The position numbers and the translations under genes are program-made. A stretch of 64,000 nucleotides of DNA from Eledone cirrhosa. Taxonomy: Eukaryota. Where the stretch lies: NCBI GenBank assembly GCA_964016885.1, contig OZ024744.1:115506001-115570000 (forward strand), written 5' to 3'. The notes under the pieces were generated by a model, which saw only the letters and a program-made list of their open reading frames with translations, had not been told where the DNA came from and ran no database searches. Numbering within the stretch: the stretch's first letter is position 1; each line of letters opens with the position of its first letter. This document shows positions 29,114-64,000 of this stretch, one piece after another.

Positions 29114-29417
29114 AGCATATAAACAATATGCCCCCACTCCCCCCACCACAAGGTGGTCGTGGACGTGCCACGGCAAAAAAAGCACCCAGCCCACACTGTA
29201 AAGTGGATGTGTAGGTACCACGGAAAAAAGCACCCAGCACTCACTGTAAATGAGGTTGGTGTTAGGAAGGGCATCCAGCTGTAGAAATCAAGCCAGATCA
29301 GTTCCTGTATGAGCAAGGCATGGTCAGCCGACCAGACACTGCCCACAACAGGATAACCCGTCTAACCCATGCTAGCGTGGAAGAACGGACGTAAAACGGT
29401 GATGATGATGATGATGA
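28550..29417 (+). mobile_element. 5'-truncated RTE-clade LINE (ORF C-terminus, 3' UTR, (GAT)n tail) inserted in the satellite
   Basis: Seen: satellite stops at ...TAACAACAC (28549) and resumes TGTACCAGATG (29418); the element ends in a (GAT)n tail. Knowledge: GWKKFREL, LHGSETW, RLRWYGHV.R and GRPK.TW are typical of the post-RT region of RTE-type non-LTR retrotransposons. Confidence 0.93.
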
Positions 29418-38400: not shown

Positions 38401-41400
38401 GTCTAGGATGTCTGTATGTGACAACACTGTCCCAGATGTGGTAGTGGTACTGTAATGTGGTCTAGTATGTCTGTATGTAACAACACTGTCCTAGATGTGG
38501 TAGCCGTACTGTAATGTAGTCTAGGATGTCTGTATGTCACAACACTGTACCAGATGTGGTAGCTGTACCTTAATGTGGTCTAGGATGTCTGTATGTAACA
38601 ACACTGTACCAGATGTGGTAGTAGTACTGTAATGTGGTCTAGGATGTCTGTATGTAACAACACTGTCCTAGATGTGGTAGCAGTACTGTAATGTGGTCTA
38701 GGATGTCTGTATGTAACAACACTGTACCAGACGTGGTAGCAGTACTGTAATGTGGTCTAGGATGTCTATATAACAACACTGTCCCAGATGTGGTAGCAGT
38801 ACTGTAATGTAGTCTAGGATGTCTGTATGTAACAACACTGTCCCAGATGTGGTAGCAGTACTGTAATGTGGTCTAGGATGTCTGTATGTAACAACACTGT
38901 CCTAGATGTGGTAGCAGTACTGTAATGTAGTCTAGGATGTCTGTATGTGACAACACTGTCCCAGATGTGGTAGTGGTACTGTAATGTTGTCTAGTATGTC
39001 TGTATGTAACAACACTGTCCCAGATGTGGTAGCAGTACTGTAATGTGGTCTAGGATGTCTGTATGTAACAACACTGTCCTAGATGTGGTAGCAGTACTGT
39101 AATGTGGTCTAGGATGTCTGTATGTAACAACACTGTCCCAGATGTGGTAGCAGTACTGTAATGTGGTCTAGGATGTCTGTATGTAACAACACTGTCCCAG
39201 ATGTGGTAGCAGTACTGTAATGTAGTCTAGGATGTCTGTATGTAACAACACTGTCCCAGATGTGGTAGCAGTACTGTAATGTAGTCTAGGATGTCTGTAT
39301 ATAACAACACTGTACCAGATGTGGTAGCAGTACTGTAATGTGGTCTAGGATGTCTGTATATAACAACACTGTACCAGACGTGGTAGCAGTACTGTAATGT
39401 GGTCTAGGATGTCTGTATTTAACAACACTGTCCCAGATGTGGTAGCAGTACTGTAATGTGGTCTAGGATGTCTGTATGTAACAACACTGTCCCAGATGTG
39501 GTAGCAGTACTGTAATGTGGTCTAGGATGTCTGGATGTAACAACACTGTCCTAGATGTGGTAGCAATACTGTAATGTGGTCTAGGATGTCTGTATGTAAC
39601 AATACTGTCCCAGATGTGGTAGCAGTACTGTAATGTGGTCTAGGATGTCTGTATGTAACAATACTGTCCCAGATGTGGTAGCAGTACTGTAATGTAGTCT
39701 GAGATGTCTGTATGTAACAACACTGTCCCAGACGTAGTAGCAGTACTGTAATGTTGTCTAGGATGTCTGTATGTAACAACACTGTCCCAGATCTGGTAGT
39801 AGTACTGTAATGTGGTGTAGGATGTCTGTATATAACAACACTGTCCCAGATGTGGTATCAATGCTGTAATGTGGTCTAGGATGTCTGTATGTAACAACAC
39901 TGTCCCAGATGTGGTAGCAGTACTGTAATGTGGTGTAGGATGTCTGTATGTAACAACACTGTCCCCGATGTGGTAGCAGTACTGTAATGTAGTCTAGGAT
40001 GTCTCTATATAACAACACTGTCCCAGATGTGGTAGCAGTACTGTAATGTGGTCTAGGATGTCTGTATGTAACAACACTGTCCTAGATGTGGTAACAGTAC
40101 TGTAATGTGGTCTAGGATGTCTATGTAACAACACTGTCCCAGATGTGGTAGCAATGCTGTAATGTGGTCTAGGATGTCTGTATATAACAACACTGTCCTA
40201 GATGTGGTAGCAGTACTGTAATGTGGTCTAGGATGTCTGTATGTAACAACACTGTCCTAGATGTGGTAACAGTACTGTAATGTGGTCTAGGATGTCTATG
40301 TAACAACACTGTCCCAGATGTGGTAGCAATGCTGTAATGTGGTCTAGGATGTCTCTATATAACAACACTGTCCCAGATGTGGTAGCAGTACTGTAATGTG
40401 GTCTAGGAAGTCTGTATGTAACAACACTGTCCCAGATGTGGTAGCAGTACTGTAATGTGGTCTAGGATGTCTGTATGTAACAACACTGTACCAGATGAGG
40501 TAACAGTACTGTAATGCAGTCTAGTATGTCTGTGGGTATCAACACTGTCCCAGATGTGGTAGCAGTACTGTAATGTGGTCTAGGATGTCTGTAACACCAC
40601 TGTCCCAGATGTGGTAGCAGTACTGTAATGTGGTCTAGGATGTCTGTATATAACAACACTGTCCCAGATGTGGTAGCAGTACTGTAATGTGGTCTACGAT
40701 GTCTGTATGTAACAACACTGTACCAGATGTGGTAGCAGGACTGTAACGTGGTCTAGGATGTCAGTATGTAACAACACTGACCCAGGTGTGGTAGCAGTAC
40801 TGTAAGTGGTCTAGGATGTCTGTATGTAACAACACTGTCCCAGGTGTGGTAGCAGTACTGTAATGTGGTCTAGGATGTCTGTATGTAACAACACTGTCCT
40901 AGATGTGGTAGCAGTACTGTAATATAGTCTAGGATGTCTGTATGTAACAACACTCTCCTAAATGTGGTAGCAGTACTGTAATGTGGTCTAAGATATCTGT
41001 ATATAACAACACTGTCCCAGATGTAGTAGCAGTACTGTAATGTAGTCTAGGATGTCTGTATGTAACAACACTGTCCCAGATGTGGTAGCAGTACTATAAT
41101 GAGGTCTAGGGTGTCTGTAACACCATTGTCCCAGATGTGGTAATTATACTGTAATATAGCCTAGGATGTCTGTATGTAATATCAACACTGTCCTAGATGT
41201 GGTAGCAGTACTGTAATGTGATCTAGGATGTCTGTATGTAACAACACTGTCCTAGATGTGGTAGCAGTACTGTAATGTAGTCTAGGATGTCTGTATGTAA
41301 CTACACTGTCCCAGATGTGGTAGCAGTACTGTAATGTTGTCTAGGATGTCTGTATGTAAGAACACTGTCCCACATGTGGTAGCAGTACTGTAATGTGGTC

Positions 41401-42313
41401 TAGGATGTCTGTAGGTAATAACAACACTGTCGCAGATGTGGTAGCACTACTTTAATGTGGTCTAGGATGTCTGTATGTAACAACACTGTCCCAGATGTGG
41501 TAGCAGTACTGTAATGTAGTCTAGGATGTCTGTATGTAACAACACTGTGCCAGATGTGGTAGCAGTACTGTAATGTGGTCTAGGATGTCTGTATGTAACA
41601 ACACTGTCCCAGATGTGTTAGCAGTACTGTAATGTAGTCTAGGATGTTTGTATGTAACAACACTGTCCCAGATGTGGTAGCAGTACTGTAATGTGGTCTA
41701 GGATGTCTGTATGTAACAACACTGTACCAGATGTGGTAGCAGTACTGTAATGTGGTCTATGATGTCTGTATGTAACAACACTGTCCCAGGTGTGGTAGCA
41801 GTACTGTAATGTAGTCTAGGATGTCTGTATGTAACAACACTGTCCCAGATGTGGTAGCAGTACTGTAATGAGGTCTAGGATGTCTGTATGTAACAACACT
41901 GTCCCAGATGTGGTAGTAGTACTGTAATATGGTCTAGGATGTCTGTATATAACAACACTGTCCCAGATGTGGTAGCAGTACTGTAATGTGGTCTAGGATG
42001 TCTGTATGTAACAACACTGTCCCAGGTGTGGTAGCAGTACTGTAATGTAGTCTAGGATGTCTGTATGTAACAACACTGTCCCAGATGTGGTAGCAGTACT
42101 GTAATGAGGTCTAGGATGTCTGTATGTAACAACACTGTCCCAGATGTGGTAGTAGTACTGTAATATGGTCTAGGATGTCTGTATATAACAACACTGTCCC
42201 AGATGTGGTAGCAGTACTGTAATATGGTCTAGGATGTCTGTATATAACAACACTGTCCCAGATGTGGTAGCAGTACTGTAATATTGTCTAGGATGTCTGC
42301 ATATAACAACACT
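29418..42313. repeat. 59-bp satellite array, right block (more diverged monomers)
   Basis: Seen: same monomer and orientation, about 218 copies by length, more private substitutions and indels; ends at ...ATATAACAACACT near 42313. Confidence 0.99.
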
Positions 42314-42570
42314 CTCATCCAGGTTTCTCAAATACTCTGCATTCTAGTTTCTCTTCTATATAGCAATGCAGATTGGACTCAGCTACGATACCATTCATCT
42401 TTCACTCAGAGGGAAAAAACCCATCGTTATCAACGGAGGTAGTAGTTCCCTAAACTTCTTCCATCCAGTCCTTATTCTAGCTATGTTCTCAGAACAACCT
42501 CCTCCGCCACTAATTAGATGACCTAGGTAATAGAAGCTATCAACTACTTCTATGGTACCTTTGTTATCAA
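42314..42570 (-). mobile_element. Decayed RTE fragment (RT thumb to GSET region)
   Basis: Seen: minus strand IEVVDSFYYLGHLISGGGGCSENIARIRTGWKKFRELLPPLITMGF, then frameshifted FSL*VKDEWY..VQSALLYRRET. Homologous to the 28550 element. Confidence 0.88.
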
Positions 42571-42614
42571 CAGAAGTAGTAACTCCCTGAACTTTTTCCA
42601 TCATGTCCTTACTG

Positions 42615-42712
42615 ATGCTTCTGTTCTTTCAGAACACCCAACTCCACTAATTTGATCACTCAGGTAACAGAATCTATCAATTAATTCTGAGGATCCACCT
42701 CAGCATTTGGTT
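42615..42712 (-). mobile_element. Second short decayed RTE fragment covering the same F.YL..IS..GCSE motif
   Basis: Seen: minus translation KC*GGSSELIDRFCYLSDQISGVGCSERTEA. Confidence 0.7.
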
Positions 42713-42824
42713 CATTTTTAAGTATAAATAGTTGGGTCAAGCAACCATGCTTTGCTCATACATTCCATCTCTGGAAACCATGAAAACATGGAATGTATGA
42801 GCATGATGTGGTCATCAGACTATA

Positions 42825-42875
42825 TCAACCTGTCCAACCCATGTCAACATGGAAAATAGATGTAAAATGATGAAA
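42825..42875 (+). mobile_element. Isolated RTE 3'-terminus remnant
   Basis: Seen: CCTGTCCAACCCATGTCAACATGGAAAATAGATGTAAAATGATG aligns to 29357-29405 (CCCGTCTAACCCATGCTAGCGTGGAAGAACGGACGTAAAACGGTGATG). Confidence 0.75.
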
Positions 42876-43189
42876 TAAATAAAACATACCAGTTTGCATT
42901 TGGGAAAAATCCACATTTCTGAAAATGAAGAAAATAAAAATATATTAAAATAAAATAAAGTAACAAGATAGAGTTGTTATTAATGTTATAATAAAAGTTA
43001 ATTAATTTGTTGAGATGACAAGTGTCTCAGTCTTCGCAGCACTCAGCATCACACACCTGTCAAGTGTATGCCAAGTTACATAATACCACCTGATCAACTA
43101 ATTCCATCTGACTGACCCTACATTCACCTGTCTTGATAAAATTCCCACCTGGTTGCACATGTCAGTTCCATTCAGCTGGAATCTGACTT

Positions 43190-44074: not shown

Positions 44075-45600
44075 CTCTCTCATGAATATCACATATCCAT
44101 CAAAGAATACTCATTTCATTTCTCTCTAGCCATCACATAACCTCTGCATTTACTACACATGTTTCACTTCCATAAAACACTGCACTTTGCACGTAGGCAT
44201 CATACAACCAGTCTTTCATTTGCAGGGAGAAACATTTTGTTGTCAACAAAGGTAGTAGCTCCCTGAACTTTTTCCATCTTCTTATTCTAACTACTATGTT
44301 GAAGTATTTGTACCTTGAATTCCTCACTAAACTCATTTCCTGCTCTCACTTTACTGACAACTCCTCTCTACATGACTGGCACTGCTCTCACAAGCCATTC
44401 TTCTACACCTAGTTTCCTTAAGAACCACCAGATAATAGATTGAGGTACTCTGTCAAAGGCTTTCTCTAGATCTAAATATAGTGTCTTATTTTTAGTTAAG
44501 AACTTCTCTTGTAGTTACCTTAACAAAAAGAGGACATCTATAGTACTTTTCCCAAGCATGAAATCAAACTGCATTTAATTTAATTTGACTCTTTCCCTAA
44601 TTAGCTGTGCTATAACTCCTTCCAACACTTTCATAACTTGGTCCATTAGATATATTCCTCTATAGCTGCTCCTTTCTAGAGCATCACCTTTACCTTTATT
44701 ATTTATGATGGTACTGCTGCACCAGTCATTGGGTATGACACCTTCCTGTATTACCTGATTGATTATGGAAGTTACTAGTTTGACTCCTACCTCTCCTGAT
44801 GCTTTTAGCATCTCAATAGTTAACTCTGAGGGTCCAGCAGCTTTACCACTCCTTCATTTCTTCTATGACCCTATAACTGTCTATTTTAATAGCTGGTCCC
44901 TCTGTTGGCTCAGTTGGGGTTTGTCTCTCTTCCTCCATTCCTTTCTCTCCATTCACCAACCTCTCAAAGTAACATTTCCAGGCCTCTTTCTTTTGAGTAT
45001 CAGTGGTGTTAAGTACACCAGTGTCATTACAACACACTTCCCCCCCACAACATCCTGATTCATACTGACACACTGCCTTGCAATGTGGAACACCTCACAT
45101 CTTTGATCTTCATGTCATAAGACTTTAGCAAAGCTTTCAGTCTCTTTCCAAGCTATGTATACCTGTCATATAGCTTCTCTCTTAGCTACCTGGTATTGGT
45201 CTATGCTACTCCCCATTTCTCCAGTATGCCTGTCTCTTGCCCTTAATGTCTCTACTTACTGTGTTGTACCACCACCAGGTCACCCTCTGTCTGACTGTTA
45301 CTTTGCTCCAAGTCACAAGTCTCTTCAGTAACTTGTAGTAGGTTGTCACATAAGAACTTCCAATTGTCCTCAATGTCGTATATATCTAACTTGTCTCCCC
45401 TCTCATTATATGTATCCCCTAGAGTCTTTTTAAACCTATACTTTATAGAAAACTCCTTTGGTCTCCAAATTCTCCTCCTTTAGATTTTCCTGTTTCTTCT
45501 TGTTCCATCTTGTGCTTCTTTTGATGTCACGAACTGGGAAAGGACTTAACATTCATAACCATCTGCCTGTCTCATTTTCTAAGAAGAAGTTAATATGGCC
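44075..45600 (-). mobile_element. Decayed, internally deleted RTE LINE (endonuclease end, linker, RT N-half, C-terminal motif)
   Basis: Seen (minus, collinear): GHINFFL..DRQMVMNVKSFP; DIEDNWKFLCDNLL; RVTWWW; KKEAWKCYFERLVN; AAGPSELTIEMLKASGEVG...IPNDWCSSTI..KGKGDALERSSYRGI.LMDQVMKVLE; DLEKAFDRVP; then a jump to RWKKFRELLPLL...LYDAYVQSAVFYGSET. No YADD segment found. Confidence 0.92.
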
Positions 45601-48600
45601 TGTGTCTTCACCTGATTGCTAGGTGATCAGGTGACTGGCTCCCTAATTCCAGCTTGTGTCTTCACCTGATTGCTAGGTGATCAGGTGACTGGCTCCCTAA
45701 TACCAGCCTGTGTCTTCACCTGATTGCTAGGTGATCAGGTGACTGGCTCCCTAATTCCAGCTTGTGTCTTCACCTGATTGCTAGGTGATCAGGTGACTGG
45801 CTCCCTAATTCCAGCTTGTGTCTTCACCTGATTGCTAGGTGATCAGGTGACTGGCTCCCTAATTCCAGCTTGTACCTTCACCTGATTGCTAGGTGATCAG
45901 GTGACTGGCTCCCTAATTCCAGCTTGTACCTTCACCTGATTGCTAGGTGATCAGGTGGCTGGCTCCCTAATTCCAGCTTGTACCTTCACCTGATTGCTAG
46001 GTGATCAGGTGACTGGCTCCCTAATTCCAGCTTGTGTCTTCACCTGATTGCTAGGTGATCAGGTGACTGGCTCCCTAATTCCAGTTTGTACCTTCACCTG
46101 ATTGCTAGGTGATCAGGTGACTGGCTCCCTAATTCCAGCTTGTGTCTTCACCTGATTGCTAGGTGATCAGGTGACTGGCTCCCTAATTCCAGCTTGTACC
46201 TTCACCTGATTGCTAGGTGATCAGGTGACTGGCTCCCTAATTTCAGCTTGTACCTTCACCTGATTGCTAGGTGATCAGGTGACTGGCTCCCTAATTCCAG
46301 TTTGTACCTTCACCTGATTGCTAGGTGATCAGGTGACTGGCTCCCTAATTCCAGCTTGTACCTTCACCTGATTGCTAGGTGATCAGGTGACTGGCTCCCT
46401 AATTCCAGCTTGTGTCTTCACCTGATTGCTAGGTGATCAGGTGACTGGCTCCCTAATTCCAGCTTGTACCTTCACCTGATTGCTAGGTGATCAGGTGACT
46501 GGCTCCCTAATTCCAGCTTGTACCTTCACCTGATTGCTAGGTGATCAGGTGACTGGCTCCCTAATTCCAGCTTGTACCTTCACCTGATTGCTAGGTGATC
46601 AGGTGACTGGCTCCCTAATTCCAGTTTGTACCTTCATCTGATTGCTAGGTGATCAGGTGACTGGCTCCCTAATTCAAGCTTGTGTCTTCACCTGATTGCT
46701 AGGTGATCAGGTGACTGGCTCCCTAATTCCAGCTTGTACCTTCACCTGATTGCTAGGTGATCAGGTGACTGGCTCCCTAATTCCAGCTTGTACCTTCACC
46801 TGATTGCTAGGTGATCAGGTGACTGGCTCCCTAATTCCAGCTTGTGTCTTCACCTGATTGCTAGGTGATCAGGTGACTGGCTCCCTAATTCCAGCTTGTA
46901 CCTTCACCTGATTGCTAGGTGATCAGGTGACTGGCTCCCTAATTCCAGCTTGTGTCTTCACCTGATTGCTAGGTGATCAGGTGACTGGCTCCCTAATTCC
47001 AGCTTGTACCTTCACCTGATTGCTAGGTGATCAGGTGACTGGCTCCCTAATTCCAGCTTGTGTCTTCACCTGATTGCTAGGTGATCAGGTGACTGGCTCC
47101 CTAATTCCAGCTTGTACCTTCACCTGATTGCTAGGTGATCAGGTGACTGGCTCCCTAATTCCAGCTTGTGTCTTCACCTGATTGCTAGGTGATCAGGTGA
47201 CTGGCTCCCTAATTCCAGCTTGTACCTTCACCTGATTGCTAGGTGATCAGGTGACTGGCTCCCTAATTCCAGCTTGTGTCTTCACCTGATTGCTAGGTGA
47301 TCAGGTGACTGGCTCCCTAATTCCAGCTTGTACCTTCACCTGATTGCTAGGTGATCAGGTGACTGGCTCCCTAATTCCAGCTTGTACCTTCACCTGATTG
47401 CTAGGTGATCAGGTGACTGGCTCCCTAATTCCAGCTTGTGTCTTCACCTGATTGCTAGGTGATCAGGTGACTGGCTCCCTAATTCCAGCTTGTACCTTCA
47501 CCTGATTGCTAGGTGATCAGGTGACTGGCTCCCTAATTCCAGCTTGTGTCTTCACCTGATTGCTAGGTGATCAGGTGACTGGCTCCCTAATTCCAGCTTG
47601 TACCTTCACCTGATTGCTAGGTGATCAGGTGACTGGCTCCCTAATTCCAGCTTGTGTCTTCACCTGATTGCTAGGTGATCAGGTGACTGGCTCCCTAATT
47701 CCAGCTTGTACCTTCACCTGATTGCTAGGTGATCAGGTGACTGGCTCCCTAATTCCAGCTTGTGTCTTCACCTGATTGCTAGGTGATCAGGTGACTGGCT
47801 CCCTAATTCCAGCTTGTGTCTTCACCTGATTGCTAGGTGATCAGGTGACTGGCTCCCTAATTCCAGCTTGTGTCTTCACCTGATTGCTACGTGATCAGGT
47901 GACTGGCTCCCTAATTCCAGCCTGTGTCTTCACCTGATTGCTAGGTGATCAGGTGACTGGCTCCCTAATTCCAGCCTGTGTCTTCACCTGATTGCTAGGT
48001 GATCAGGTGACTGGCTCCCTAATTCCAGCTTGTGTCTTCACCTGATTGCTAGGTGATCAGGTGACTGGCTCCCTAATTCCAGCTTGTGCCTTCACCTGAT
48101 TGCTAGGTGATCAGGTGACTGGCTCCCTAATTCCAGCTTGTGTCTTCACCTGATTGCTAGGTGATCAGGTGACTGGCTCCCTAATTCCAGCTTGTGTCTT
48201 CACCTGATTGCTAGGTGATCAGGTGACTGGCTCCCTAATTCCAGCTTGTACCTTCACCTGATTGCTAGGTGATCAGGTGACTGGCTCCCTAATTCCAGCT
48301 TGTGTCTTCACCTGATTGCTAGGTGATCAGGTGACTGGCTCCCTAATTCCAGCTTGTGTCTTCACCTGATTGCTAGGTGATCAGGTGACTGGCTCCCTAA
48401 TTCCAGCTTGTACCTTCACCTGATTGCTAGGTGATCAGGTGACTGGCTCCCTAATTCCAGCTTGTGTCTTCACCTGATTGCTAGGTGATCAGGTGACTGG
48501 CTCCCTAATTCCAGTTTGTACCTTCACCTGATTGCTAGGTGATCAGGTGACTGGCTCCCTAATTCCAGCTTGTGTCTTCACCTGATTGCTAGGTGATCAG

Positions 48601-51600
48601 GTGACTGGCTCCCTAATTCCAGCTTGTACCTTCACCTGATTGCTAGGTGATCAGGTGACTGGCTCCCTAATTCCAGCTTGTACCTTCACCTGATTGCTAG
48701 GTGATCAGGTGACTGGCTCCCTAATTCCAGTTTGTACCTTCACCTGATTGCTAGGTGATCAGGTGACTGGCTCCCTAATTCCAGCTTGTACCTTCACCTG
48801 ATTGCTAGGTGATCAGGTGACAGGCTCCCTAATTCCAGCTTGTGTCTTCACCTGATTGCTAGGTGATCAGGTGACTGGCTCCCTAATTCCAGCTTGTGCC
48901 TTCACCTGATTGCTAGGTGATCAGGTGACTGGCTCCCTAATTCCAGCTTGTGTCTTCACCTGATTGCTAGGTGATCAGGTGACTGGCTCCCTAATTCCAG
49001 TTTGTACCTTCACCTGATTGCTAGGTGATCAGGTGACTGGCTCCCTAATTCCAGCTTGTGTCTTCACCTGATTGCTAGGTGATCAGGTGACTGGCTCCCT
49101 AATTCCAGCTTGTACCTTCACCTGATTGCTAGGTGATCAGGTGACTGGCTTCCTAATTCCAGCTTGTACCTTCACCTGATTGCTAGGTGATCAGGTGACT
49201 GGCTCCCTAATTCCAGTTTGTACCTTCACCTGATTGCTAGGTGATCAGGTGACTGGCTCCCTAATTCCAGCTTGTACCTTCACCTGATTGCTAGGTGATC
49301 AGGTGACTGGCTCCCTAATTCCAGTTTGTACCTTCACCTGATTGCTAGGTGATCAGGTGACTGGCTCCCTAATTCCAGCTTGTACCTTCACCTGATTGCT
49401 AGGTGATCAGGTGACTGGCTCCCTAATTCCAGCTTGTACCTTCACCTGATTGCTAGGTGATCAGGTGACTGGCTCCCTAATTCCAGCTTGTACCTTCACC
49501 TGATTGCTAGGTGATCAGGTGACTGGCTCCCTAATTCCAGATTGTACCTTCACCTGATTGCTAGGTGATCAGGTGACTGGCTCCCTAATTCCAGCTTGTA
49601 CCTTCACCTGATTGCTAGGTGATCAGGTGACTGGCTCCCTAATTCCAGCTTGTGTCTTCACCTAATTGCTAGGTGATCAGGTGACTGGCTCCCTAATTCC
49701 AGCTTGTGTCTTCACCTGATTGCTAGGTGATCAGGTGACTGGCTCCCTAATTCCAGCTTGTGTCTTCACCTGATTGCTAGGTGATCAGGTGACTGGCTCC
49801 CTAATTCCAGCTTGTACCTTCACCTGATTGCTAGGTGATCAGGTGACTGGCTCCCTAATTCCAGCTTGTGTCTTCACCTGATTGCTAGGTGATCAGGTGA
49901 CTGGCTCCCTAATTCCAGCTTGTACCTTCACCTGATTGCTAGGTGATCAGGTGACTGGCTCCCTAATTCCAGCTTGTGTCTTCACCTGATTGCTAGGTGA
50001 TCAGGTGACTGGCTCCCTAATTCCAGCTTGTACCTTCACCTGATTGCTAGGTGATCAGGTGACTGGCTCCCTAATTCCAGCTTGTACCTTCACCTGATTG
50101 CTAGGTGATCAGGTGACTGGCTCCCTAATTCCAGTTTGTACCTTCACCTGATTGCTAGGTGATCAGGTGACTGGCTCCCTAATTCCAGCTTGTACCTTCA
50201 CCTGATTGCTAGGTGATCAGGTGACTGGCTCCCTAATTCCAGCTTGTACCTTCACCTGATTGCTAGGTGATCAGGTGACTGGCTCCCTAATTCCAGCTTG
50301 TACCTTCACCTGATTGCTAGGTGATCAGGTGACTGGCTCCCTAATTCCAGATTGTACCTTCACCTGATTGCTAGGTGATCAGGTGACTGGCTCCCTAATT
50401 CCAGCTTGTACCTTCACCTGATTGCTAGGTGATCAGGTGACTGGCTCCCTAATTCCAGCTTGTGTCTTCACCTAATTGCTAGGTGATCAGGTGACTGGCT
50501 CCCTAATTCCAGCTTGTGTCTTCACCTGATTGCTAGGTGATCAGGTGACTGGCTCCCTAATTCCAGCTTGTGTCTTCACCTGATTGCTAGGTGATCAGGT
50601 GACTGGCTCCCTAATTCCAGCTTGTACCTTCACCTGATTGCTAGGTGATCAGGTGACTGGCTCCCTAATTCCAGCTTGTGTCTTCACCTGATTGCTAGGT
50701 GATCAGGTGACTGGCTCCCTAATTCCAGCTTGTACCTTCACCTGATTGCTAGGTGATCAGGTGACTGGCTCCCTAATTCCAGCTTGTGTCTTCACCTGAT
50801 TGCTAGGTGATCAGGTGACTGGCTCCCTAATTCCAGCTTGTACCTTCACCTGATTTCTAGGTGATCAGGTGACTGGCTCCCTAATTCCAGCTTGTGTCTT
50901 CACCTGATTGCTAGGTGATAAGGTGACTGGCTCCCTAATTCCAGCTTGTACCTTCACCTGATTGCTAGGTGATCAGGTGACTGGCTCCCTAATTCCAGCT
51001 TGTACCTTCACCTGATTGCTAGGTGATCAGGTGACTGGCTCCCTAATTCCAGCTTGTGTCTTCACCTGATTGCTAGGTGATCAGGTGACTGGCTCCCTAA
51101 TTCCAGCTTGTACCTTCACATGATTGCTAGGTGATCAGGTGACTGGCTCCCTAATTCCAGCTTGTGTCTTCACCTGATTGCTAGGTGATCAGGTGACTGG
51201 CTCCCTAATTCCAGCTTGTGTCTTCACCTGATTGCTAGGTGATCAGGTGACTGGCTCCCTAATTCCAGCTTGTGTCTTCACCTGATTGCTAGGTGATCAG
51301 GTGACTGGCTCCCTAATTCCAGCCTGTGTCTTCACCTGATTGCTAGGTGATCAGGTGACTGGCTCCCTAATTCCAGCCTGTGTCTTCACCTGATTGCTAG
51401 GTGATCAGGTGACTGGCTCCCTAATTCCAGCTTGTGTCTTCACCTGATTGCTAGGTGATCAGGTGACTGGCTCCCTAATTCCAGCTTGTACCTTCACCTG
51501 ATTGCTAGGTGATCAGGTGACTGGCTCCCTAATTCCAGCTTGTACCTTCACCTGATTGCTAGGTGATCAGGTGACTGGCTCCCTAATTCCAGCTTGTGTC

Positions 51601-52505
51601 TTCACCTGATTGCTAGGTGATCAGGTGACTGGCTCCCTAATTCCAGCTTGTACCTTCACATGATTGCTAGGTGATCAGGTGACTGGCTCCCTAATTCCAG
51701 CTTGTGTCTTCACCTGATTGCTAGGTGATCAGGTGACTGGCTCCCTAATTCCAGCTTGTGTCTTCACCTGATTGCTAGGTGATCAGGTGACTGGCTCCCT
51801 AATTCCAGCTTGTGTCTTCACCCGATTGCTAGGTGATCAGGTGACTGGCTCCCTAATTCCAGCCTGTGTCTTCACCTGATTGCTAGGTGATCAGGTGACT
51901 GGCTCCCTAATTCCAGCCTGTGTCTTCACCTGATTGCTAGGTGATCAGGTGACTGGCTCCCTAATTCCAGCTTGTGTCTTCACCTGATTGCTAGGTGATC
52001 AGGTGACTGGCTCCCTAATTCCAGCTTGTACCTTCACCTGATTGCTAGGTGATCAGGTGACTGGCTCCCTAATTCCAGCTTGTGTCTTCACCTGATTGCT
52101 AGGTGATCAGGTGACTGGCTCCCTAATTCCAGCTTGTGTCTTCACCTGATTGCTAGGTGATCAGGTGACTGGCTCCCTAATTCCAGCTTGTACCTTCACC
52201 TGATTGCTAGGTGATCAGGTGACTGGCTCCCTAATTCCAGCTTGTGTCTTCACCTGATTGCTAGGTGATCAGGTGACTGGCTCCCTAATTCCAGCTTGTG
52301 TCTTCACCTGATTGCTAGGTGATCAGGTGACTGGCTCCCTAATTCCAGCTTGTACCTTCACCTGATTGCTAGGTGATCAGGTGACTGGCTCCCTAATTCC
52401 AGCTTGTACCTTCACCTGATTGCTAGGTGATCAGGTGACTGGCTCCCTAATTCCAGCTTGTACCTTCACCTGATTGCTAGGTGATCAGGTGACTGGCTCC
52501 CTGAT
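45598..52505. repeat. 54-bp tandem array (~128 copies) derived from RTE endonuclease coding sequence
   Basis: Seen: monomer TGT(GT/AC)CTTCACCTGATTGCTAGGTGATCAGGTGACTGGCTCCCTAATTCCAGCT, very homogeneous. Minus strand reads ASHLIT*QSGE(D/G)TS and runs directly into the adjacent RTE. Confidence 0.97.
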
Positions 52506-52519
52506 TTCAGCAGGTCCTT

Positions 52520-52873: not shown

Positions 52874-53592
52874 GGTAGTGATGGTGTCATGATAAAATGC
52901 ACCTAGTATACTCTGTAAAGTGGTAGTGTTGGTGTCATGATAAAATACACCCAGTACACTCTGTAAAGTGGTAGTGCTGGTGTCATGATATAATACACCC
53001 AGTACACTCTGTAAAGTGGTAGTGCTGGTGTCATGATATAATACACCCAGTACACTCTGTAAAGTGGTAGTGTTGGTGTCACAATAAAATACACCCAGTA
53101 CACTCTGTAAAGTGGTAGTGTTGGTGTCACAATAAAATACACCCAGTACACTCTGTAAAGTGGTAGTGTTAGTGTCATGATAATATACACCCAGTACACT
53201 CTGTAAAGTGGTAGTGCTGGTGCCATGATAAAATACACCCAGTAAACTCTGTAAAGTGGTAGTGTTAGTGTCATAATATAATACAACCAGTACACTCTGT
53301 AATGTGGTAGTGTCATGATAAAATACACCCAGTACACTCTGTAAAGTGGTAGTATTGGTGTCATGATAAAATACACCCAATACACTCTGTAAAGTGGTAG
53401 TGTTGGTGTCATGATATAATACACCCAGTACACTCTGTAAAGTGGTAGTGCTGGTGCCATGATAAAATACACCCAGTACACTCTGTAAAGTGGTAGTGTT
53501 GGTGTCACAATAAAATAAACCCAGTACACTCTGTAAAGCGGTACTGTTGGTGTCATGATAAAATACACCCAGTGAACTCTGTAAAGTGGTAG
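52874..53592 (+). repeat. 48-bp minisatellite (~15 copies) expanded from an RTE 3' UTR repeat unit
   Basis: Seen: unit TAAAATACACCCAGTACACTCTGTAAAGTGGTAGTG(T/C)TGGTGTCATGA, with one 42-bp unit near 53300. Matches the 48-bp-spaced units at 29181 and 29229. Confidence 0.95.
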
Positions 53593-53722: not shown

Positions 53723-53913
53723 ATAATTGTTTCTACTTTAGGCACAAGGCCAGCAATTACCCTGTGCATTACTGGTACTTTATTTTATCGACCCCGTAAG
53801 GATGAAAGGCAAAGTCAACCTCGGCGGGATTTGAACTCAGATCGTAAAGGGACGTAACTATGCTGGAAAGCATGGCGTCCGACCCTCTACCAATACTGCC
53901 AATCCACCGCCCT
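53720..53913 (-). mobile_element. tRNA-derived SINE
   Basis: Seen (minus): GGCGG head, A-box-like TGGCAGTATTGG, B-box GAGTTCAAATCCC, central GTTGACTTTGCCTTTCATCCTTACGGGGTCGATAAAATAAAGTACCAG, 3' GGCCTTGTGCCTAAAGTAGAAAC plus ATT tail. From recall this is an abundant octopus SINE with a conserved (Meta-type) core; unchecked. Confidence 0.8.
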
Positions 53914-53937
53914 TGATAATAATGCATTGATGATGAT

Positions 53938-54338: not shown

Positions 54339-55117
54339 GTGTAATAAGGGGGCAGAGATCACCAACTACTACCACAACCACTACAACTACCACTACTACC
54401 ACAACCACTACAACTACCACTACTAACACAACCACTACAACAGCTAATACAACCACTACTATCACTACAACTAGAATAGTTACAACCACTACAACTACAA
54501 CAGCTACAACCACTACCACTACAACAGCTACAACCACTACTACAACCACTACCACTACAACAACTACAACCACAACCACAGCTACCACCACTACCACTAC
54601 AACAGCTACTACCACTACTACTACAACTGCTACAACTGCTACAACTACTACAACCACTACCACAACAACAACTACAGCCACAATTATAACCACTACCTCT
54701 ACAACAGCTACAACCTCTACCACTACAACTACTACTACTAATACAACCATTACCACAAACACTACCACTACTACAGCTACAACCACTACCACTACAGCTA
54801 CAACCACTACCTCTACTACAGCTACAACCACTACAACAACAACAACTATTACAACTACTACAACCACTACAACAAGTACAACCACTACCACCACAACAAC
54901 TGCTACAACAACAACAACCACTACAACAGCTACAACTATTACAGCTACAATCATAACCACTACTACTACCACTACAACAGCTACTACTATCACTACTACA
55001 GCTACAACCACTACACAACATTTTTTGTAATGTACAACATCAACTTTTCATTTACCAATATTTTGGTATCAGACTCAGGCCAAATTATCTACTCTGGGGT
55101 CCCAAATGATGGGGATG
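54339..55117 (+). CDS. Candidate mucin-like Thr-rich exon (needs a 1-nt correction near 55015)
   Basis: Seen: AG at 54337-54338; open frame VIRGQRSPTTTT... to TAA at 55028-55030; after a 1-nt shift, TTFFVMYNINFSFTNILVSDSGQIIYSGVPNDGD then G|GTATGG. Exon status is inference only. Confidence 0.35.
54362..55020 (+). repeat. Imperfect (ACN)n trinucleotide tract (Thr-codon rich); possibly coding
   Basis: Seen: ACT/ACA/ACC with interspersed GCT, in strict triplet phase for about 220 triplets. Confidence 0.95.
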
Positions 55118-55152
55118 GTATGGAATAAGTGGGGTGTGGGTGGAATAAGTGG

Positions 55153-58100
55153 AGTGCTACATGGTAGTGAGAGATGGGTAGTAAATGTAGAGGATGTGTG
55201 AAGGGTAGATTGTATGATGTCTGTGTATGTTACATGGTAGTGTGACATGGGTAGTAAATGTAGAGGATGTGTGAAGGGTAGATTGTATGATGTCTGTGTT
55301 ACATGGTAGTGAGACATGGGTATTGAATGTAGAGGATGTGTGAAGGGTAGATTGTATGATGTATGTGTTACATGGTAGTGAGACATGGTTATTGAATGTA
55401 GAGGATGTGTGAAGGGTAGATTGTATGATGTCTGTGTATGTTACATGGTAGTGTGACATGGGTAGTTAATATAGAGGATGTGTGAGGGGTAGATTGTATG
55501 ATGTCTGTGTATGTTACATGGTAGTGAGACATGGGTAGTTAATGTAGAGGATGTGTGAAGGGTAGATTGTATGATGTCTATGTATGTTACATGGTAGTGA
55601 GACATAGGTAGTTAATGTAGAGGATGTGTGAAGGGTAGATTGTATGATGTCTGTGAATGTTACATGGTAGTGGGACATGGGTAGTTAATGTAGAGGATGT
55701 GTGAAGGGTAGATTGTATGATGTCTGTGTATGTTACATGGTAGTGAGCCATGGGTAGTTAATGTAGAGGATGCGTGAAGGGTAGATTGTATGATGTCTAT
55801 GTTACATGGTAGTGAGACATGGGTATTGAATGTAGAGGATGTGTGAAGGGTAGATTGTATGATGTCTGTGTTACATGGTAGTGAGACATGGGTATTGAAT
55901 GTAGAGGATGTGTGAAGGGTAGATTGTATGATGTCTGTGTTACATGGTAGTGAGACATGGGTAGTTAATGTAGAGGATGTGTGAAGGGTAGAGTGTATGA
56001 TGTATGTGTATGTTACATGGTAGTGGGCCATGGGTAGGTAATGTAGAGGATGTGTGAAGGGTAGATTGTACGATGTCTATGTTACATGGTAGTGAGACAT
56101 GGGTATTGAATGTAGAGGATGTGTGAAGGGTAGATTGTATGATGTATGTGTATGTTACATGGTAGTGGGACATGGGTAGTTAATGTAGAGGATGTGTGAA
56201 GGGTAGATTGTATGATGTCTATGTTACATGGTAGTGAGACATGGGTATTGAATGTAGAGGATGTGTGAAGGGTAGATTGTATGATGTATGTGTTACATGG
56301 TAGTGAGACATGGTTATTGAATGTAGAGGATGTGTGAAGGGTAGATTGTATGATGTCTGTGTATGTTACATGGTGGTGTGACATGGGTAGTTAATGTAGA
56401 GGATGTGTGAGGGGTAGATTGTATGATGTCTGTGTATGTTACATGGTAGTGAGACATGGGTAGTTAATGTAGAGGATGTGTGAAGGGTAGATTGTATGAT
56501 GTCTATGTTACATGGTAGTGAGACATGGGTAGTTAATGTAGAGGATGTGTGAAGGGTAGATTGTATGATGTCTGTGTATGTTACATGGTAGTGTGACATG
56601 GGTAGTTAATGTAGAGGATGTGTGAATGGTAGATTGTACGATGTCTGTGTATGTTACATGGTAGTTAGACATGGGCAGTTAATATAGAGGATGTGTGAAG
56701 GGTAGATTGTATGATGTCTGTGTATGTTACATGGTAGTGAGCCATGGGTAGTTAATGTAGAGGATGTGTGAAGGGTAGATTGTATGATGTCTGTGTATGT
56801 TACATGGTAGTGAGACATGGGTAGTTAATGTAGAGGATGTGTGAAGGGTAGATTGTATGATGTCTGTGTATGTTACATGGTAGTGAGACATGGGTAGTTA
56901 ATGTAGAGGATGTGTGAAGGGTAGATTGTATGATGTCTGTGTTACATGGTAGTGAGACATGGGTATTGAACGTAGAGGATGTGTGAAGGGTAGATTGTAT
57001 GATGTCTGTGTATGTTACATGGTAGTGGGCCATGGGTAGGTAATGTAGAGGATGCGTGAAGGGTAGATTGCATGATGTCTATGTTACATGGTAGTGAGAC
57101 ATGGGTATTGAATGTAGAGGATGTGTGAAGGGTAGATTGTATGATGTCTGTGTATGTTACATGCTAGTGGGCCATTGGTAGGTAATGTAGAGGATGTGTG
57201 AAGGGTAGATTGTTTGATGGATGTGTTACATGGTAGTGAGACATGTGTAGTTAATGTAGAGGATGTGTGAAGGGTAGATTATATGATATCTGCGTGTGTT
57301 ACATGGTAGTGTGACATGGGTAGTTAATGTAGAGGATGTGTGAAGGGTAGATTGTATGATATCTATGTTACATGGTAGTGAGACATGGGTAGTTAATGTA
57401 GAGGATGTGTGAATGGTAGATTGTATGATGTCTGTGTATGTTACATGGTAGTGTGACATGGGTAGTTAATGTAGAGGATGTGTGAAGGGTAGATTGTATG
57501 ATATCTATGTTACATGGTAGTGAGACATGGGTAGTTAATGTAGAGGATGTGTGAATGGTAGATTGTATGATGTCTGTGTATGTTACATGGTAGTGAGACA
57601 TGGGTAATTAATGTAGAGGATGTGTGAAGGGTAGATTGTATGATGTCTGTGTATGTTACATGGTAGTGTGACATGGGTAGTTAATGTAGAGGATGTGTGA
57701 AGGGTAGATTGTATGATGTCTGTGTATGTTACATGGTAGTGAGACATGGGTAGTTAATGTAGAGGATGTGTGAAGGGTAGATTGTATGATGTTTATGTTA
57801 CATGGTAGTGAGACATGGGTATAGAATGTAGAGGATGTGTGAAGGGTAGATTGTATGATGTCTGTGTATGTTACATGGTAGTGTGACATGGGTAGTTAAT
57901 GTAGAGGATGTGTGAAGGGTAGATTGTATGATGTATGTGTTACATGGTAGTGGGACATAGGTAGTTAATGTAGAGGATGTGTGAAGGGTAGATTGTATGA
58001 TGTCTATGTTACATGGTAGTGAGACATGGGTATTGAATGTAGAGGATGTGTGAAGGGTAGATTGTATGATGTCTGTGTATGTTACATGGTAGTGAGACAT

Positions 58101-61100
58101 GGGTAGTTAATGTAGAGGATGTGTGAAGGGTAGATTGTATGATGTCTGTGTATGTTACATGGTAGTTAGACATGGGTAGTTAATGTAGAGGATGTGTGAA
58201 GGGTAGATTGTAAGATGTCTGTGTATGTTGCATGGTAGTGAGATATGGGTAGTTAATGTAGAGGATGTGTGAAGGGTAGATTGTAAGATGTCTGTGTATG
58301 TTACATGGTAGTGAGACATGGGTAGTTAATGTAGAGGATGTGTGAATGGTAGATTGTAAGATGTCTGTGTATGTTACATGGTAGTTAGACATGGGTAGTT
58401 AATGTAGAGGAAGTGTGAAGGGTAGATTGTAAGATGTCTGTGTATGTTACATGGTAGTGAGACATGGGTAGTTAATGTAGAGGATGTGTGAATGGTAGAT
58501 TGTACGATGTCTGTGTATGTTACATGGTAGTTAGACATGGGCAGTTAATGTAGAGGATGTGTGAAGGGTAGATTGTATGATGTCTGTGTATGTTAGATGG
58601 TAGTGAGCCATGGGTAGTTAATGTAGAGGATGTGTGAAGGGTAGATTGTATGATGTCTATGTTACATGGTAGTGAGACATAGGTAGTTAATGTAGAGGAT
58701 GTGTGAAGGGTAGATTGTATGATGTCTGTGTATGTTACATGGTAGTGAGACATGGGTAGTTAATGTAGAGGATGTGTGAAGGGTAGATTGTATGATGTCT
58801 GTGTATGTTACATGGTAGTTAGACATGGGTAGTTAATGTAGAGGATGTGTGAAGGGTAGATTATATGATGTCTGCGTATGTTACATGGTAGTGTGACATG
58901 GGTAGTTAATGTAGAGGATGTGTGAAGGGTAGATTGTATGATATCTATGTTACATGGTAGTGAGACATGGGTAGTTAATGTAGAGGATGTGTGAATGGTA
59001 GATTGTATGATGTCTGTGTATGTTACATGGTAGTGTGACATGGGTAGTTAATGTAGAGGATGTGTGAAGGGTAGATTGTATGATATCTATGTTACATGGT
59101 AGTGAGACATGGGTAATTAATGTAGAGGATGTGTGAAGGGTAGATTGTATGATGTCTGTGTATGTTACATGGTAGTGTGACATGGGTAGTTAATGTAGAG
59201 GATGTGTGAAGGGTAGATTGTATGATGTCTGTGTATGTTACATGGTAGTGAGACATGGGTAGTTAATGTAGAGGATGTGTGAAGGGTAGATTGTATGATG
59301 TCTATGTTACATGGTAGTGAGACATGGGTATTGAATGTAGAGGATGTGTGAAGGGTAGATTGTATGATGTCTGTGTATGTTACATGGTAGTGAGACATGG
59401 GTAGTTAATGTAGAGGATGTGTGAAGGGTAGATTGTATGATGTCTATGTTACATGGTAGTGAGACATGGGTATTGAATGTAGAGGATGTGTGAAGGGTAG
59501 ATTGTATGATGTCTGTGTATGTTACATGGTAGTGAGACATGGGTAGTTAATGTAGAGGATGTGTGAAGGGTAGATTGTATGATGTCTGTGTATGTTACAT
59601 GGTAGTTAGACATGGGTAGTTAATGTAGAGGATGTGTGAAGGGTAGATTGTAAGGTGTCTGTGTATGTTACATGGTAGTGAGACATGGGTAGTTAATGTA
59701 GACGATGTGTGAATGGTAGATTGTAAGATGTCTGTGTATGTTACATGGTAGTGAGACATGGGTAGTTAATGTAGAGGATGTGTGAATGGTAGATTGTAAG
59801 ATGTCTGTGTATGTTACATGGTAGTTAGACATGGGTAGTTAATGTAGAGGATGTGTGAAGGGTAGATTGTAAGATGTCTGTGTATGTTACATGGTAGTGA
59901 GACATGGGTAGTTAATGTAGAGGATGTGTAAATGGTAGATTGTACGATGTCTGTGTATGTTACATGGTAGTTAGACATGGGCAGTTAATGTAGAGGATGT
60001 GTGAAGGGTAGATTGTATGATGTCTGTGTATGTTAGATGGTAGTGAGCCATGGGTAGTTAATGTAGAGGATGTGTGAAGGGTAGATTGTATGATGTCTAT
60101 GTTACATGGTAGTGAGACATAGGTAGTTAATATAGAGGATGTGTGAAGGGTAGATTGTATGATGTCTGTGTATGTTACATGGTAGTGAGACATGGGTAGT
60201 TAATGTAGAGGATGTGTGAAGGGTAGATTGTATGATGTCTGTGTATGTTACATGGTAGTTAGACATGGGTAGTTAATGTAGAGGATGTGTGAAGGGTAGA
60301 TTGTATGATGTCTGTGTATGTTACATGGTAGTGGGACATGGGTAGTTAATGTAGAGGATGTGTGAAGGGTAGATTGTATGATGTCTGTGTATGTTACATG
60401 GTAGTGAGCCATGGGTAGCTAATGTAGAGGATGTGTGAAGGGTAGATTGTATGATGTCTATGTTACATGGTAGTGAGACATGGGTATTGAATGTAGAGAA
60501 TGTGTGAGGGGTAGATTGTATGATGTCTGTGTATGTTACATGGTAGTGAGACATGTGTAGTTAATGTAGAGGATGTGTGAAGGGTAGATTGTATGATGTC
60601 TATGTTACATGGTAGTGAGACATGGGTATTGAATGTAGAGGATGTGTGAAGGGTAGATTGTATGATGTCTGTGTATGTTACATGGTAGTGTGACATGGGT
60701 AGTTAATGTAGAGGATGTGTGAAGGGTAGATTGTATGATGTATGTGTTACATGGTAGTGGGACATGGTTAGTTAATGTAGAGGATGTGTGAAGGGTAGAT
60801 TGTATGATGTCTATGTTACATGGTAGTGAGACATGGGTTTTGAATGTAGAGGATGTATGAAGGGCAGATTGTATGATGTCTGTGTATGTTACATGGTAGT
60901 GAGACATGGGTAGTTAATGTAGAGGATGTGTGAAGGGTAGATTGTATGATGTCTGTGTATGTTACATGGTAGTTAGACATGGGTAGTTAATGTAGAGGAT
61001 GTGTGAAGGGTAGATTGTAAGATGTCTGTGTATGTTACATGGTAGTGAGACATGGGTAGTTAATGTAGAGGATGTGTGAATGGTAGATTGTAAGATGTCT

Positions 61101-64000
61101 GTGTATGTTACATGGTAGTGAGACATGGGTAGTTAATGTAGAGAATGTGTGAAGGGTAGATTGTATGATATCTGTGTATGTTACATGGTAGTGAGACATG
61201 GGTAGTTAATGTAGAGGATGTGTGAATGGTAGATTGTAAGATGTCTGTGTATGTTGCATGGTAGTGAGATATGGGTAGTTAATGTAGAGGATGTGTGAAG
61301 GGTAGATTGTAAGATGTCTGTGTATGTTACATGGTAGTGAGACATGGGTAGTTAATGTAGAGAATGTGTGAAGGGTAGATTGTATGATATCTGTGTATGT
61401 TACATGGTAGTGAAACATGGGTAGTTAATGTAGAGGATGTGTGAATGGTTGATTGTAAGATGTCTATGTTACATGGTAGTGAGACATGGGTAGTTAATGT
61501 AGAGGATGTGTGAATGGTAGATTGTACGATGTCTGTGTATGTTACATGGTAGTTAGACATGGGCAGTTAATGTAGAGGATGTGTGAAGGGTAGATTGTAT
61601 GATGTCTGTGTATGTTAGATGGTAGTGAGCCATGGGTAGTTAATGTAGAGGATGTGTGAAGGGTAGATTGTATGATGTCTATGTTACATGGTAGTGAGAC
61701 ATAGGTAGTTAATGTAGAGGATGAGTGAAGGGTAGATTGTATGATGTCTGTGTATGTTACATGGTAGTGAGACATGGGTAGTTAATGTAGAGGATGTGTG
61801 AAGGGTAGATTGTATGATGTCTGTGTATGTTACATGGTAGTTAGACATGGGTAGTTAATGTAGAGGATGTGTGAAGGGTAGATTGTATGATGTCTGTGTA
61901 TGTTACATGGTAGTGTGACATGGGTAGTTAATGTAGAGGATGTGTGAGGGTTAGATTGTATGATGTCTGTGTATGTTACATGGTAGTGAGACATGGGTAG
62001 TTAATGTTGAGGATGTGTGAAGGGTAGATTGTATGATGTCTATGTTACATGGTAGTGAGACATGGGTATTGAATGTAGAGGATGTGTGAAGGGTAGATTG
62101 TATGATGTCTGTGTATGTTACATGGTAGTGTGACATGGGTAGTTAATGTAGAGGATGTGTGAAGGGTAGATTGTATGATGTCTGTGTATGTTACATGGTA
62201 GTGAGACATGGGTAGTTAATGTAGAGGATGTGTGAATGGTAGATTGTAAGATGTCTGTGTATGTTGCATGGTAGTGAGATATGGGTAGTTAATGTAGAGG
62301 ATGTGTGAAGGGTAGATTGTAAGATGTCTGTGTATGTTACATGGTAGTGAGACATGGGTAGTTAATGTAGAGGATGTGTGAATGGTAGATTGTAAGATGT
62401 CTGTGTATGTTACATGGTAGTTAGACATGGGTAGTTAATGTAGAGGATGTGTGAAGGGTAGATTGTAAGATGTCTGTGTATGTTACATGGTAGTTAGACA
62501 TGGGCAGTTAATGTAGAGGATGTGTGAAGGGTAGATTGTATGATGTCTGTGTATGTTACATGGTAGTGTGACATGGGTAGTTAATGTAGAGGATGTGTGA
62601 AGGGTAGATTGTATGATGTCTGTGTATGTTACATGGTAGTGAGCCATGGGTAGCTAATGTAGAGGATGTGTGAAGGGTAGATTGTATGATGTCTATGTTA
62701 CATGGTAGTGAGACATGGGTATTGAATGTAGAGGATGTGTGAAGGGTAGATTGTATGATGTCTGTGTATGTTACATGGTAGTGAGACATGGGTAGTTAAT
62801 GTAGAGGATGTGTGAAGGGTAGATTGTATGATGTCTGTGTATGTTACATGGTAGTGTGACATGGGTAGTTAATGAAGAGGATGTGTGAAGGGTAGATTTA
62901 TGATATCTATGTTACATGGTAGTGAGACATGGGTAGTTAATGTAGAGGATGTGTGAATGGTAGATTGTATGATGTCTGTGTATGTTACATGGTAGTGAGA
63001 CATGGGTAATTAATGTAGAGGATGTGTGAAGGGTAGATTGTATGATGTCTGTGTATGTTACATGGTAGTGTGACATGGGTAGTTAATGTAGAGGATGTGT
63101 GAAGGGTAGATTGTATGATGTCTGTGTATGTTACATGGTAGTGAGACATGGGTAGTTAATGTAGAGGATGTGTGAAGGGTAGATTGTATGATGTCTATGT
63201 TACATGGTAGTGAGACATGGGTATTGAATGTAGAGGATGTGTGAAGGGTAGATTGTATGATGTCTGTGTATGTTACATGGTAGTGTGACATGGGTAGTTA
63301 ATGTAGAGGATGTGTGAAGGGTAGATTGTATGATGTATGTGTTACATGGTAGTGGGACATGGTTAGTTAATGTAGAGGATGTGTGAAGGGTAGATTGTAT
63401 GATGTCTATGTTACATGGTAGTGAGACATGGGTATTGAATGTAGAGGATGTGTGAAGGGTAGATTGTATGATGTCTGTGTATGTTACATGGTAGTGAGAC
63501 ATGGGTAGTTAATGTAGAGGATGTGTGAAGGGTAGATTGTATGATGTCTGTGTATGTTACATGGTAGTTAGACATGGGTAGTTAATGTAGAGGATGTGTG
63601 AAGGGTAGATTGTAAGATGTCTGTGTATGTTACATGGTAGTGAGACATGGGTAGTTAATGTAGAGGATGTGTGAATGGTAGATTGTAAGATGTCTGTGTA
63701 TGTTACATGGTAGTGAGACATGGGTAGTTAATGTAGAGAATGTGTGAAGGGTAGATTGTATGATATCTGTGTATGTTACATGGTAGTGAGACATGGGTAG
63801 TTAATATAGAGGATGTGTGAATGGTAGATTGTAAGATGTCTGTGTATGTTGCATGGTAGTGAGATATGGGTAGTTAATGTAGAGGATGTGTGAAGGGTAG
63901 ATTGTAAGATGTCTGTGTATGTTACATGGTAGTGGGACATGGGTAGTTAATGTAGAGGATGTGTGAATGGTAGATTGTAAGATGTCTGTGTATGTTACAT
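55153..64000 (+). repeat. 73/69-bp satellite array (~120 copies, continues past window end) derived from RTE C-terminal coding sequence
   Basis: Seen: GTTACATGGTAGTGAGACATGGGTAGTTAATGTAGAGGATGTGTGAAGGGTAGATTGTATGATGTCTGTGTAT (73 bp) and 4-nt-shorter variants. Plus strand spells LHGSETWVVNVEDV and VKGRLYDVCV. Confidence 0.97.

Follow-up and report, generated by a model that had tools for sequence, protein, structure and literature searches.

What is a satellite made of when its unit still reads as protein-coding sequence, and how were its first two units joined? The question is raised by the right-hand end of a 64,000-nucleotide stretch of the Eledone cirrhosa genome (assembly GCA_964016885.1, contig OZ024744.1, positions 115,506,001 to 115,570,000 of the forward strand; the window, hereafter, with position 1 its first letter), which is occupied by an array of 73- and 69-bp units. 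The array is transposon-derived satellite DNA, being a long head-to-tail array with significant homology to a dispersed transposon, a long interspersed nuclear element (LINE). Its origin was probably a head-to-tail duplication of 83 nt in an old, decayed LINE copy, at an imperfect match of 12 nt with GTGAAGG at its centre.

A satellite unit made of LINE coding sequence

The array and the two LINE copies of the window with which it can be aligned are the following.

55153 to 64000, forward strand: 73/69-bp tandem array, open at the window's end; a LINE coding segment (KGRLY...HGSETW...EDV, stop, R) without 10 nt.
28551 to 29419, forward strand: 5'-truncated LINE copy with a (GAT)n tail, lying inside a 59-bp array; homologous segment at 28664-28746.
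44085 to 44300, reverse strand: decayed LINE copy of the same family; homologous segment at 44137-44219, its end reading TGA TGG CTA GAG AGA.

Tandem Repeats Finder assigns the array a period of 73, 123.1 copies and 92% matches over 55158-64000, and its head-to-tail units extend for at least 8.8 kb within the 64-kb window. When split, the array comprises 122 whole units, of which 87 measure 73 bp, 34 measure 69 bp and 1 measures 68 bp; they differ from the majority unit by a mean of 2.7% substitutions and include 62 distinct units. Translated in one frame the unit gives VKGRLYDVCV, and in another MLHGSETWVVNVEDV, a stop codon and R; the LINE copy at 28664 (forward strand) reads MKGRLYDACIRTAMLHGSETWALKVEDLRRLERNE, and the 44.1-kb copy (minus strand) reads MKDWLYDAYVQSAVFYGSETCVVNAEVM, a stop codon and WLERNE. 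An earlier note on this DNA, made from the letters without database searches, had quoted these readings for the unit and for both copies (the latter as far as the stop), and all of them proved correct when translated again. Its central claim, that the unit is a piece of a LINE open reading frame (ORF), is borne out for the C-terminal part of the reverse transcriptase (RT) at both the DNA and the protein level. The alignment of monomer to LINE that it had proposed as a check is significant against both in-window copies: in local alignment, two real units attain a score of 59 with the 28.6-kb copy and of 68 with the 44-kb copy, and 0 of 300 dinucleotide shuffles do so in either case (shuffle maxima 36 and 44). 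With four further targets in the window, array units aligned at chance level. Moreover, a translated unit dimer matches three full-length LINE proteins, with 0 of 200 shuffles reaching the score for each.

The 28.6-kb copy has 20 longer homologs, among them entries named as Octopus bimaculoides reverse-transcriptase proteins, which are the nearest named relatives. The full-length homologs P0004, P0010 and P0012 carry PF03372 and PF00078 (endonuclease and RT), and the in-window copies, all truncated or decayed, match parts of these three; a Pfam search with a 106-aa in-window LINE piece returned nothing relevant. We infer that the source element belongs to the RTE clade, from homolog names, motifs and the octopus LINE papers rather than from a tree. 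LINEs of this clade have a 3' tail of short tandem repeats, with which the (GAT)n tail ending the 28.6-kb copy at 29400-29419 agrees. Farther afield, a search for related loci returned 16 distant ones with 24-78% identity over the best segment, too remote for a base-level test of the joins and left unused. A pattern scan of metagenome contigs gave 0 matches, and 2 viral-contig matches to a 17-letter pattern were taken as chance.

Two joins and the short match

The homologous period in both intact in-window LINE copies is 83 nt. The intact segment is written here as A (the codons of VKGRLYDxCV), B (10 nt) and C (the codons of MLHGSETW...EDVRR), and the array unit is A plus C. This arrangement has two joins.

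55198 to 55209, forward strand: first C-to-A unit join; GTGAAGG (55198-55204) within an imperfect 12-mer common to the start of the segment (VKGR codons) and to its end with the next LINE codons.
55222 to 55229, forward strand: A-to-C join, found in every unit; site of the 10-nt loss (between TGTGT and ATG), boundary 55226/55227.

Alignment of the unit with the LINE requires a 10-nt gap, positioned after TGTGT, and the absence of about 10 nt that had been claimed for the unit is confirmed by this gap (an 83-nt segment reduced to 73). One detail of the earlier reading is corrected, in that the M codon is retained in the 73-mer (...TGT GT followed by ATG TTA...). The 69-mer has lost a further 4 nt, in the TG- and TA-rich patch that also holds the 10-nt loss, and it is probably the derived form, because the 73-mer retains the C-V codons and the M codon. 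At the C-to-A join the letters upstream are of the end type and the next letter is of the start type, as expected of the join inside GTGAAGG that had been proposed; the crossover falls within this 7-mer, itself inside the imperfect 12-mer.

Whether the source carried a microhomology at this point is a separate matter. GTGAAGG occurs once per array unit, and its reading as both end and start is therefore no evidence of a microhomology in the source. Four sequencing runs, X1, X4, X7 and X8, were compared with 55016-55236 at 80% likeness, giving 254, 61 and 3 contigs and, from X8, a restriction-site-associated DNA (RAD) library, 2080 reads; contig counts here and below are drawn from the best 21 of 347 pieces, 19 of 119 loose-end rows and 12 of 18 between-letter rows. 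Dispersed copies fit as far as 55204 and then continue as CTG GA(G/A) AGA AAT GAA (LERNE codons) in at least 16 X1 and at least 5 X4 contigs, and the segment end in the 44-kb copy agrees with the array join at 10 of 12 letters, the alignment running through the join. In X4, depth climbs from 74 at 55196 to 391 at 55203, where no alternative letter is listed, and half of the depth at 55220 carries the LINE-type C; linear copies that start with the join letters are therefore implied, if indirectly. Among the X8 reads there are LINE copies but none that spans the join, which a reduced library would lead one to expect. The microhomology claimed in the earlier note is supported in part, on the end side by the LERNE continuations and on the start side indirectly; it is absent from the two LINE copies that were cited for it, where segment start and end are identical at 6 and 5 of 12 letters.

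The earlier note also inferred that CpG decay, from CGA to TGA, had completed this match. The decay is real in the dispersed copies. Of the 11 homologs that have the full motif, 6 carry R where the array has its stop codon; the X8 reads have CGA CGG in 779 cases and TGA TGG in 665, these being counts of RAD reads and not of loci; contig loose ends at the site show CAA AGG and TGA AGA, and the 44-kb copy shows TGA TGG. The occurrence of CGA, TGA and CAA among dispersed copies is, to judge from the codons, the signature of decay on both strands. The ratio of observed to expected CpG is 0.11 in the old LINE DNA of the window versus 0.64 in the young copy, and 119 of the 122 array units have TG at the stop site (the exceptions are two GCG and one GAG). 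Given the decayed codons and the low CpG in old LINE DNA, a TGA source is plausible, and CGA-to-TGA decay may have altered the source and lengthened the perfect match from 5 to 7 letters. What does not stand is the need for it: decay is not required for the duplication, because with CGA both ends still share GAAGG and the flanking matches. The stricter proposition, that duplication became possible only once CGA had turned into TGA and supplied a perfect 7-nt GTGAAGG at both ends, is for this reason unlikely, even with decay evident at the stop codon, in the CpG ratios and in the TG of 119 units, and with flanking repeats of mostly 7 bp in the human cases given in the cited part of PMC3389668. 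The T of TGA can be explained otherwise, since the start-side GTG codon could have donated it or it could have originated once the segment had been duplicated, possibilities between which the array does not discriminate; the RAD reads, as said, do not count loci. Passages of PMC9476566 report low methylation for the transposons of O. bimaculoides and higher methylation for its satellites, a pattern that favours decay after tandem copying at least equally.

The left edge, the order of events and competing origins

The left edge of the array keeps letters of the LINE that most of its interior has lost.

55147 to 55156, forward strand: relic of the 10-nt piece B, matching the 44-kb copy at 9 of 10 letters; internal units are without B.
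55160 to 55301, forward strand: edge units 1 and 2, with adenine at unit position 24, as in the LINE copies and the contigs of organism A; most internal units have thymine.

A 9-of-10 match to B was reached by 0 of 6958 background 10-mers (the 44-kb copy having been chosen as the closer of two), and one X1 contig aligns from 55147 among the matches listed. No A-to-T row appears at 55183 for the contigs of organism A. Taken together, the B relic and the retained adenine in units 1 and 2 therefore mark the left edge as the older part of the array. Directly before the first unit, at 55110-55149, there is a 20-nt imperfect duplication (75%), and just left of the array are a stretch like a short interspersed repeat (53735-53915), presumably resembling the tails of octopus short interspersed elements, and a decayed (ACT/ACA/ACC)n microsatellite (54360-55015).

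The X1 contigs also bear on the order of events. Backward joints summing to 83 were not accepted as tandem units, because any linear A-B-C LINE copy gives them, and tandem forms were kept only where a single piece crosses 55204/55205, which holds for 3 of the 8 X1 records listed. Each of these, records 3, 4 and 6 (depth 10.5, 11 and 17.3), runs across the C-to-A join without a gap, and joints of equal depth place B between A and C, with periods of 80, 86 and 83. They look like short tandem forms that retain B, either precursors of the array or independent duplications in the same register; on either reading, duplication first and 10-nt loss second is therefore the favoured order. The finished joins are found as well in organisms A, D and B: X1 and X7 contigs carry the one of 73 bp, and the one of 69 bp occurs in contigs of X1 and X4. 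Since organism A is without the commonest unit variant of the window and the left flank of the array is uncovered, the X1, X4 and X7 organisms are probably relatives, not members of the window's population. Summed X1 depth over the unit is about 30,000-43,000 versus 4-18 for single contigs, and indicates a high copy number in X1, depth not being a count.

Within the array the units have been copied in blocks: near-identical runs of 5-7 units recur at lags of 20, 36, 42 and 75 units. Slippage or unequal exchange therefore fits, and the copying of one small circle does not. The likeliest series of events would begin with a decayed LINE copy in which the 83-nt stretch was doubled by slippage or unequal repair at the imperfect 12-nt match. 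A 10-nt loss would have followed, taking the unit from 83 to 73 bp, and a 4-nt slip would then have taken some units from 73 to 69 bp; the order of these losses is the likely one. The array presumably grew through slippage and through the unequal exchange of blocks of several units.

Several observations weigh against this series. Upstream of the 10-nt relic no LINE is recognisable at the left edge, and a simple duplication in place would leave some. The two ends of the match are seen separately in dispersed copies and never together in one source copy (the in-window copies give the 6 and 5 of 12 noted above), and R is absent from the stop site in 5 of the 11 full-motif homologs. Records 3, 4 and 6 are tied to their joints by equal depth values only, and record 4 gives a period of 86, not 83. 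The unique left flank at 55016-55087 is covered in 0 of the 4 runs, so that this locus itself is not seen elsewhere. Finally, short direct repeats with partial end units account for only 6% of human transposon-derived tandem repeats in the cited part of PMC3389668.

The first of these points is what a duplication at the time of retrotransposition would explain. RT would have jumped back 83 nt at the match and stopped soon afterwards, leaving a 5'-truncated insertion that starts inside the duplicated unit; a left edge that begins in the 10-nt piece with no recognisable LINE upstream has the shape expected of such an insertion, and the window holds another internal LINE duplication, of period 137, at 42426-42688. 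On the other hand, a 20-nt duplication is found in the left flank itself, so that remodelling there may be explanation enough, and we regard this origin as improbable. A small circle excised elsewhere and amplified or spread by rolling-circle copying, with this locus as a landing site and not a birthplace, is very unlikely: the join in contigs of three organisms (going back 73 in X1 and X7, 69 in X1 and X4) and the very high summed X1 depth, which would allow for other arrays, speak for it, but the 62 distinct units vary in many-unit blocks, unlike copies of one 73-bp circle, and the edge retains LINE letters that the monomer lacks, where uniform copies and an edge free of source letters would be expected. 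A double-stranded circle of 73-83 bp is also below the usual DNA bending length. The earlier description of the unit as a circularised piece of the ORF finds no support in the sense of a DNA circle, given the multi-unit block copies and the source letters at the edge, and is best read as circularly joined.

Other arrays in the window and known satellites

With duplication of a decayed LINE copy as the favoured origin of the 73-bp array, the remaining arrays of the window can be set beside it.

52874 to 53592: 48-bp minisatellite, 15 copies; matches a 3' untranslated motif of the LINE at 28551-29419 (score 69, 0 of 300 shuffles).
45606 to 52511, reverse strand: 54-bp array, 128 copies, 97% matches; reads SHLIT, stop, QSG in register with the endonuclease region of the adjoining LINE.
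1 to 42313: 59-bp satellite of at least 42 kb, for which a LINE match was not found.

The motif that matches the 48-bp unit is already doubled inside the 28.6-kb LINE copy. LINE support for the 54-bp array is modest (1 of 150 and 6 of 150 shuffles with two proteins, no gain with a third), and the match is not significant without the positional constraint; the 54-bp unit may span the join of two LINE pieces, the other end of the array abutting the 3' part of a different LINE. For the 59-bp array, 64 and 44 of 300 DNA shuffles, and 92-172 of 200 translated ones, reach the scores obtained against the LINE. The LINE at 28551-29419 that lies inside this array is young and CpG-rich, without a visible target-site duplication, and the last TG of its tail overlaps the satellite's TG. 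The 137-bp internal LINE duplication is on the minus strand and comprises two copies of VVDSFYYLG...WKKFRELL, an unexpanded dimer.

The segment has also been repeated in other registers (55154-55200): one contig each of X1 and X7 has a register of about 47 bp, and at least 10 X1 contigs have one of 40 bp. P0026 (in a cluster with P0168 and P0169) is an ORF of about 10 copies of a 71-residue unit that holds the LINE segment (...KVYKSFIRSAMLYE..W), an array apparently independent of the 73-bp one. A tentative possibility is that the C-terminal RT segment is a recurrent seed of satellites: CpG decay would turn it into a TG-rich stretch with many short matches, several octopus-like genomes would have duplicated it repeatedly in 83-, ~47- and 40-bp registers, all stages between a dimer and an array of many kilobases would survive, and three of the four long arrays of the window (73, 54 and 48 bp) would come from one LINE family. 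If true, octopus-like genomes would offer a natural series for satellite birth. That the window consists mostly of tandem arrays at most hints at a heterochromatic or centromeric location. No host function is implied for the 73-bp array, which most likely has no sequence-specific one; in repeat annotation, such arrays inflate LINE counts.

Satellites derived from LINEs are known. Those tabulated in PMC9659126 include chicken HinfI (CR1 3' untranslated region and partial ORF2), PROsat of Phodopus roborovskii (L1 ORF2), seal Pvc 20 (L1 ORF2) and the common cetacean satellite (the 3' part of L1). Like them, the present array is a head-to-tail series of LINE-homologous units, here of coding sequence; unlike them, as there described, the whole short unit is LINE-derived, both joins are placed to the base, and an RTE-like LINE from a mollusc served as source, the term RTE being absent from the main text of that review. 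RTE and RTE-BovB form an abundant LINE group in octopus (PMC8967140, PMC9115989, PMC13282606). The source family is compatible with this group, going by the names of its homologs and the domains they carry. As far as the text of these three papers goes, no satellites derived from RTE are described and the word satellite appears 0, 1 and 0 times, the last count being that of the 2026 O. vulgaris repeat annotation (PMC13282606). A literature search found no octopus or RTE-derived satellite of this kind, although supplements and repeat libraries could list the unit.

With regard to mechanism, the closest precedents are the Haber-Louis model of minisatellite origin and the Alu-derived minisatellites, in which, as outlined in the cited parts of PMC6947457 and PMC3389668, the first duplication takes place at a flanking repeat of 5-10 bp and later growth is by slippage, conversion or unequal crossing-over. 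The present case probably shares the first duplication at a short repeat flanking the future unit and the later growth. It differs in that the match is imperfect and deduced from dispersed copies, a second deletion would have reshaped the unit before growth, and the array reaches at least 8.8 kb. In maize, CRM1TR and CRM4TR are arrays wholly from one retrotransposon, for which multi-step deletions at short homologies have been proposed (PMC3648361, in the part consulted). They resemble the present array in being built of retrotransposon sequence only, in the independent seeding of arrays by similar regions and in the multi-step deletions proposed; unlike it, they derive from long terminal repeat elements, have units of several hundred bases and have a demonstrated centromeric location. 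The beginnings of a satellite can seldom be observed, its source having decayed past recognition. In this array the coding template pins down both joins to the base, and what look like intermediates persist; with the genome to hand, the short-repeat model becomes directly testable. Satellites from LINE coding sequence and origins at short direct repeats are both already established; this octopus case, absent from the literature searched, is unusually legible.

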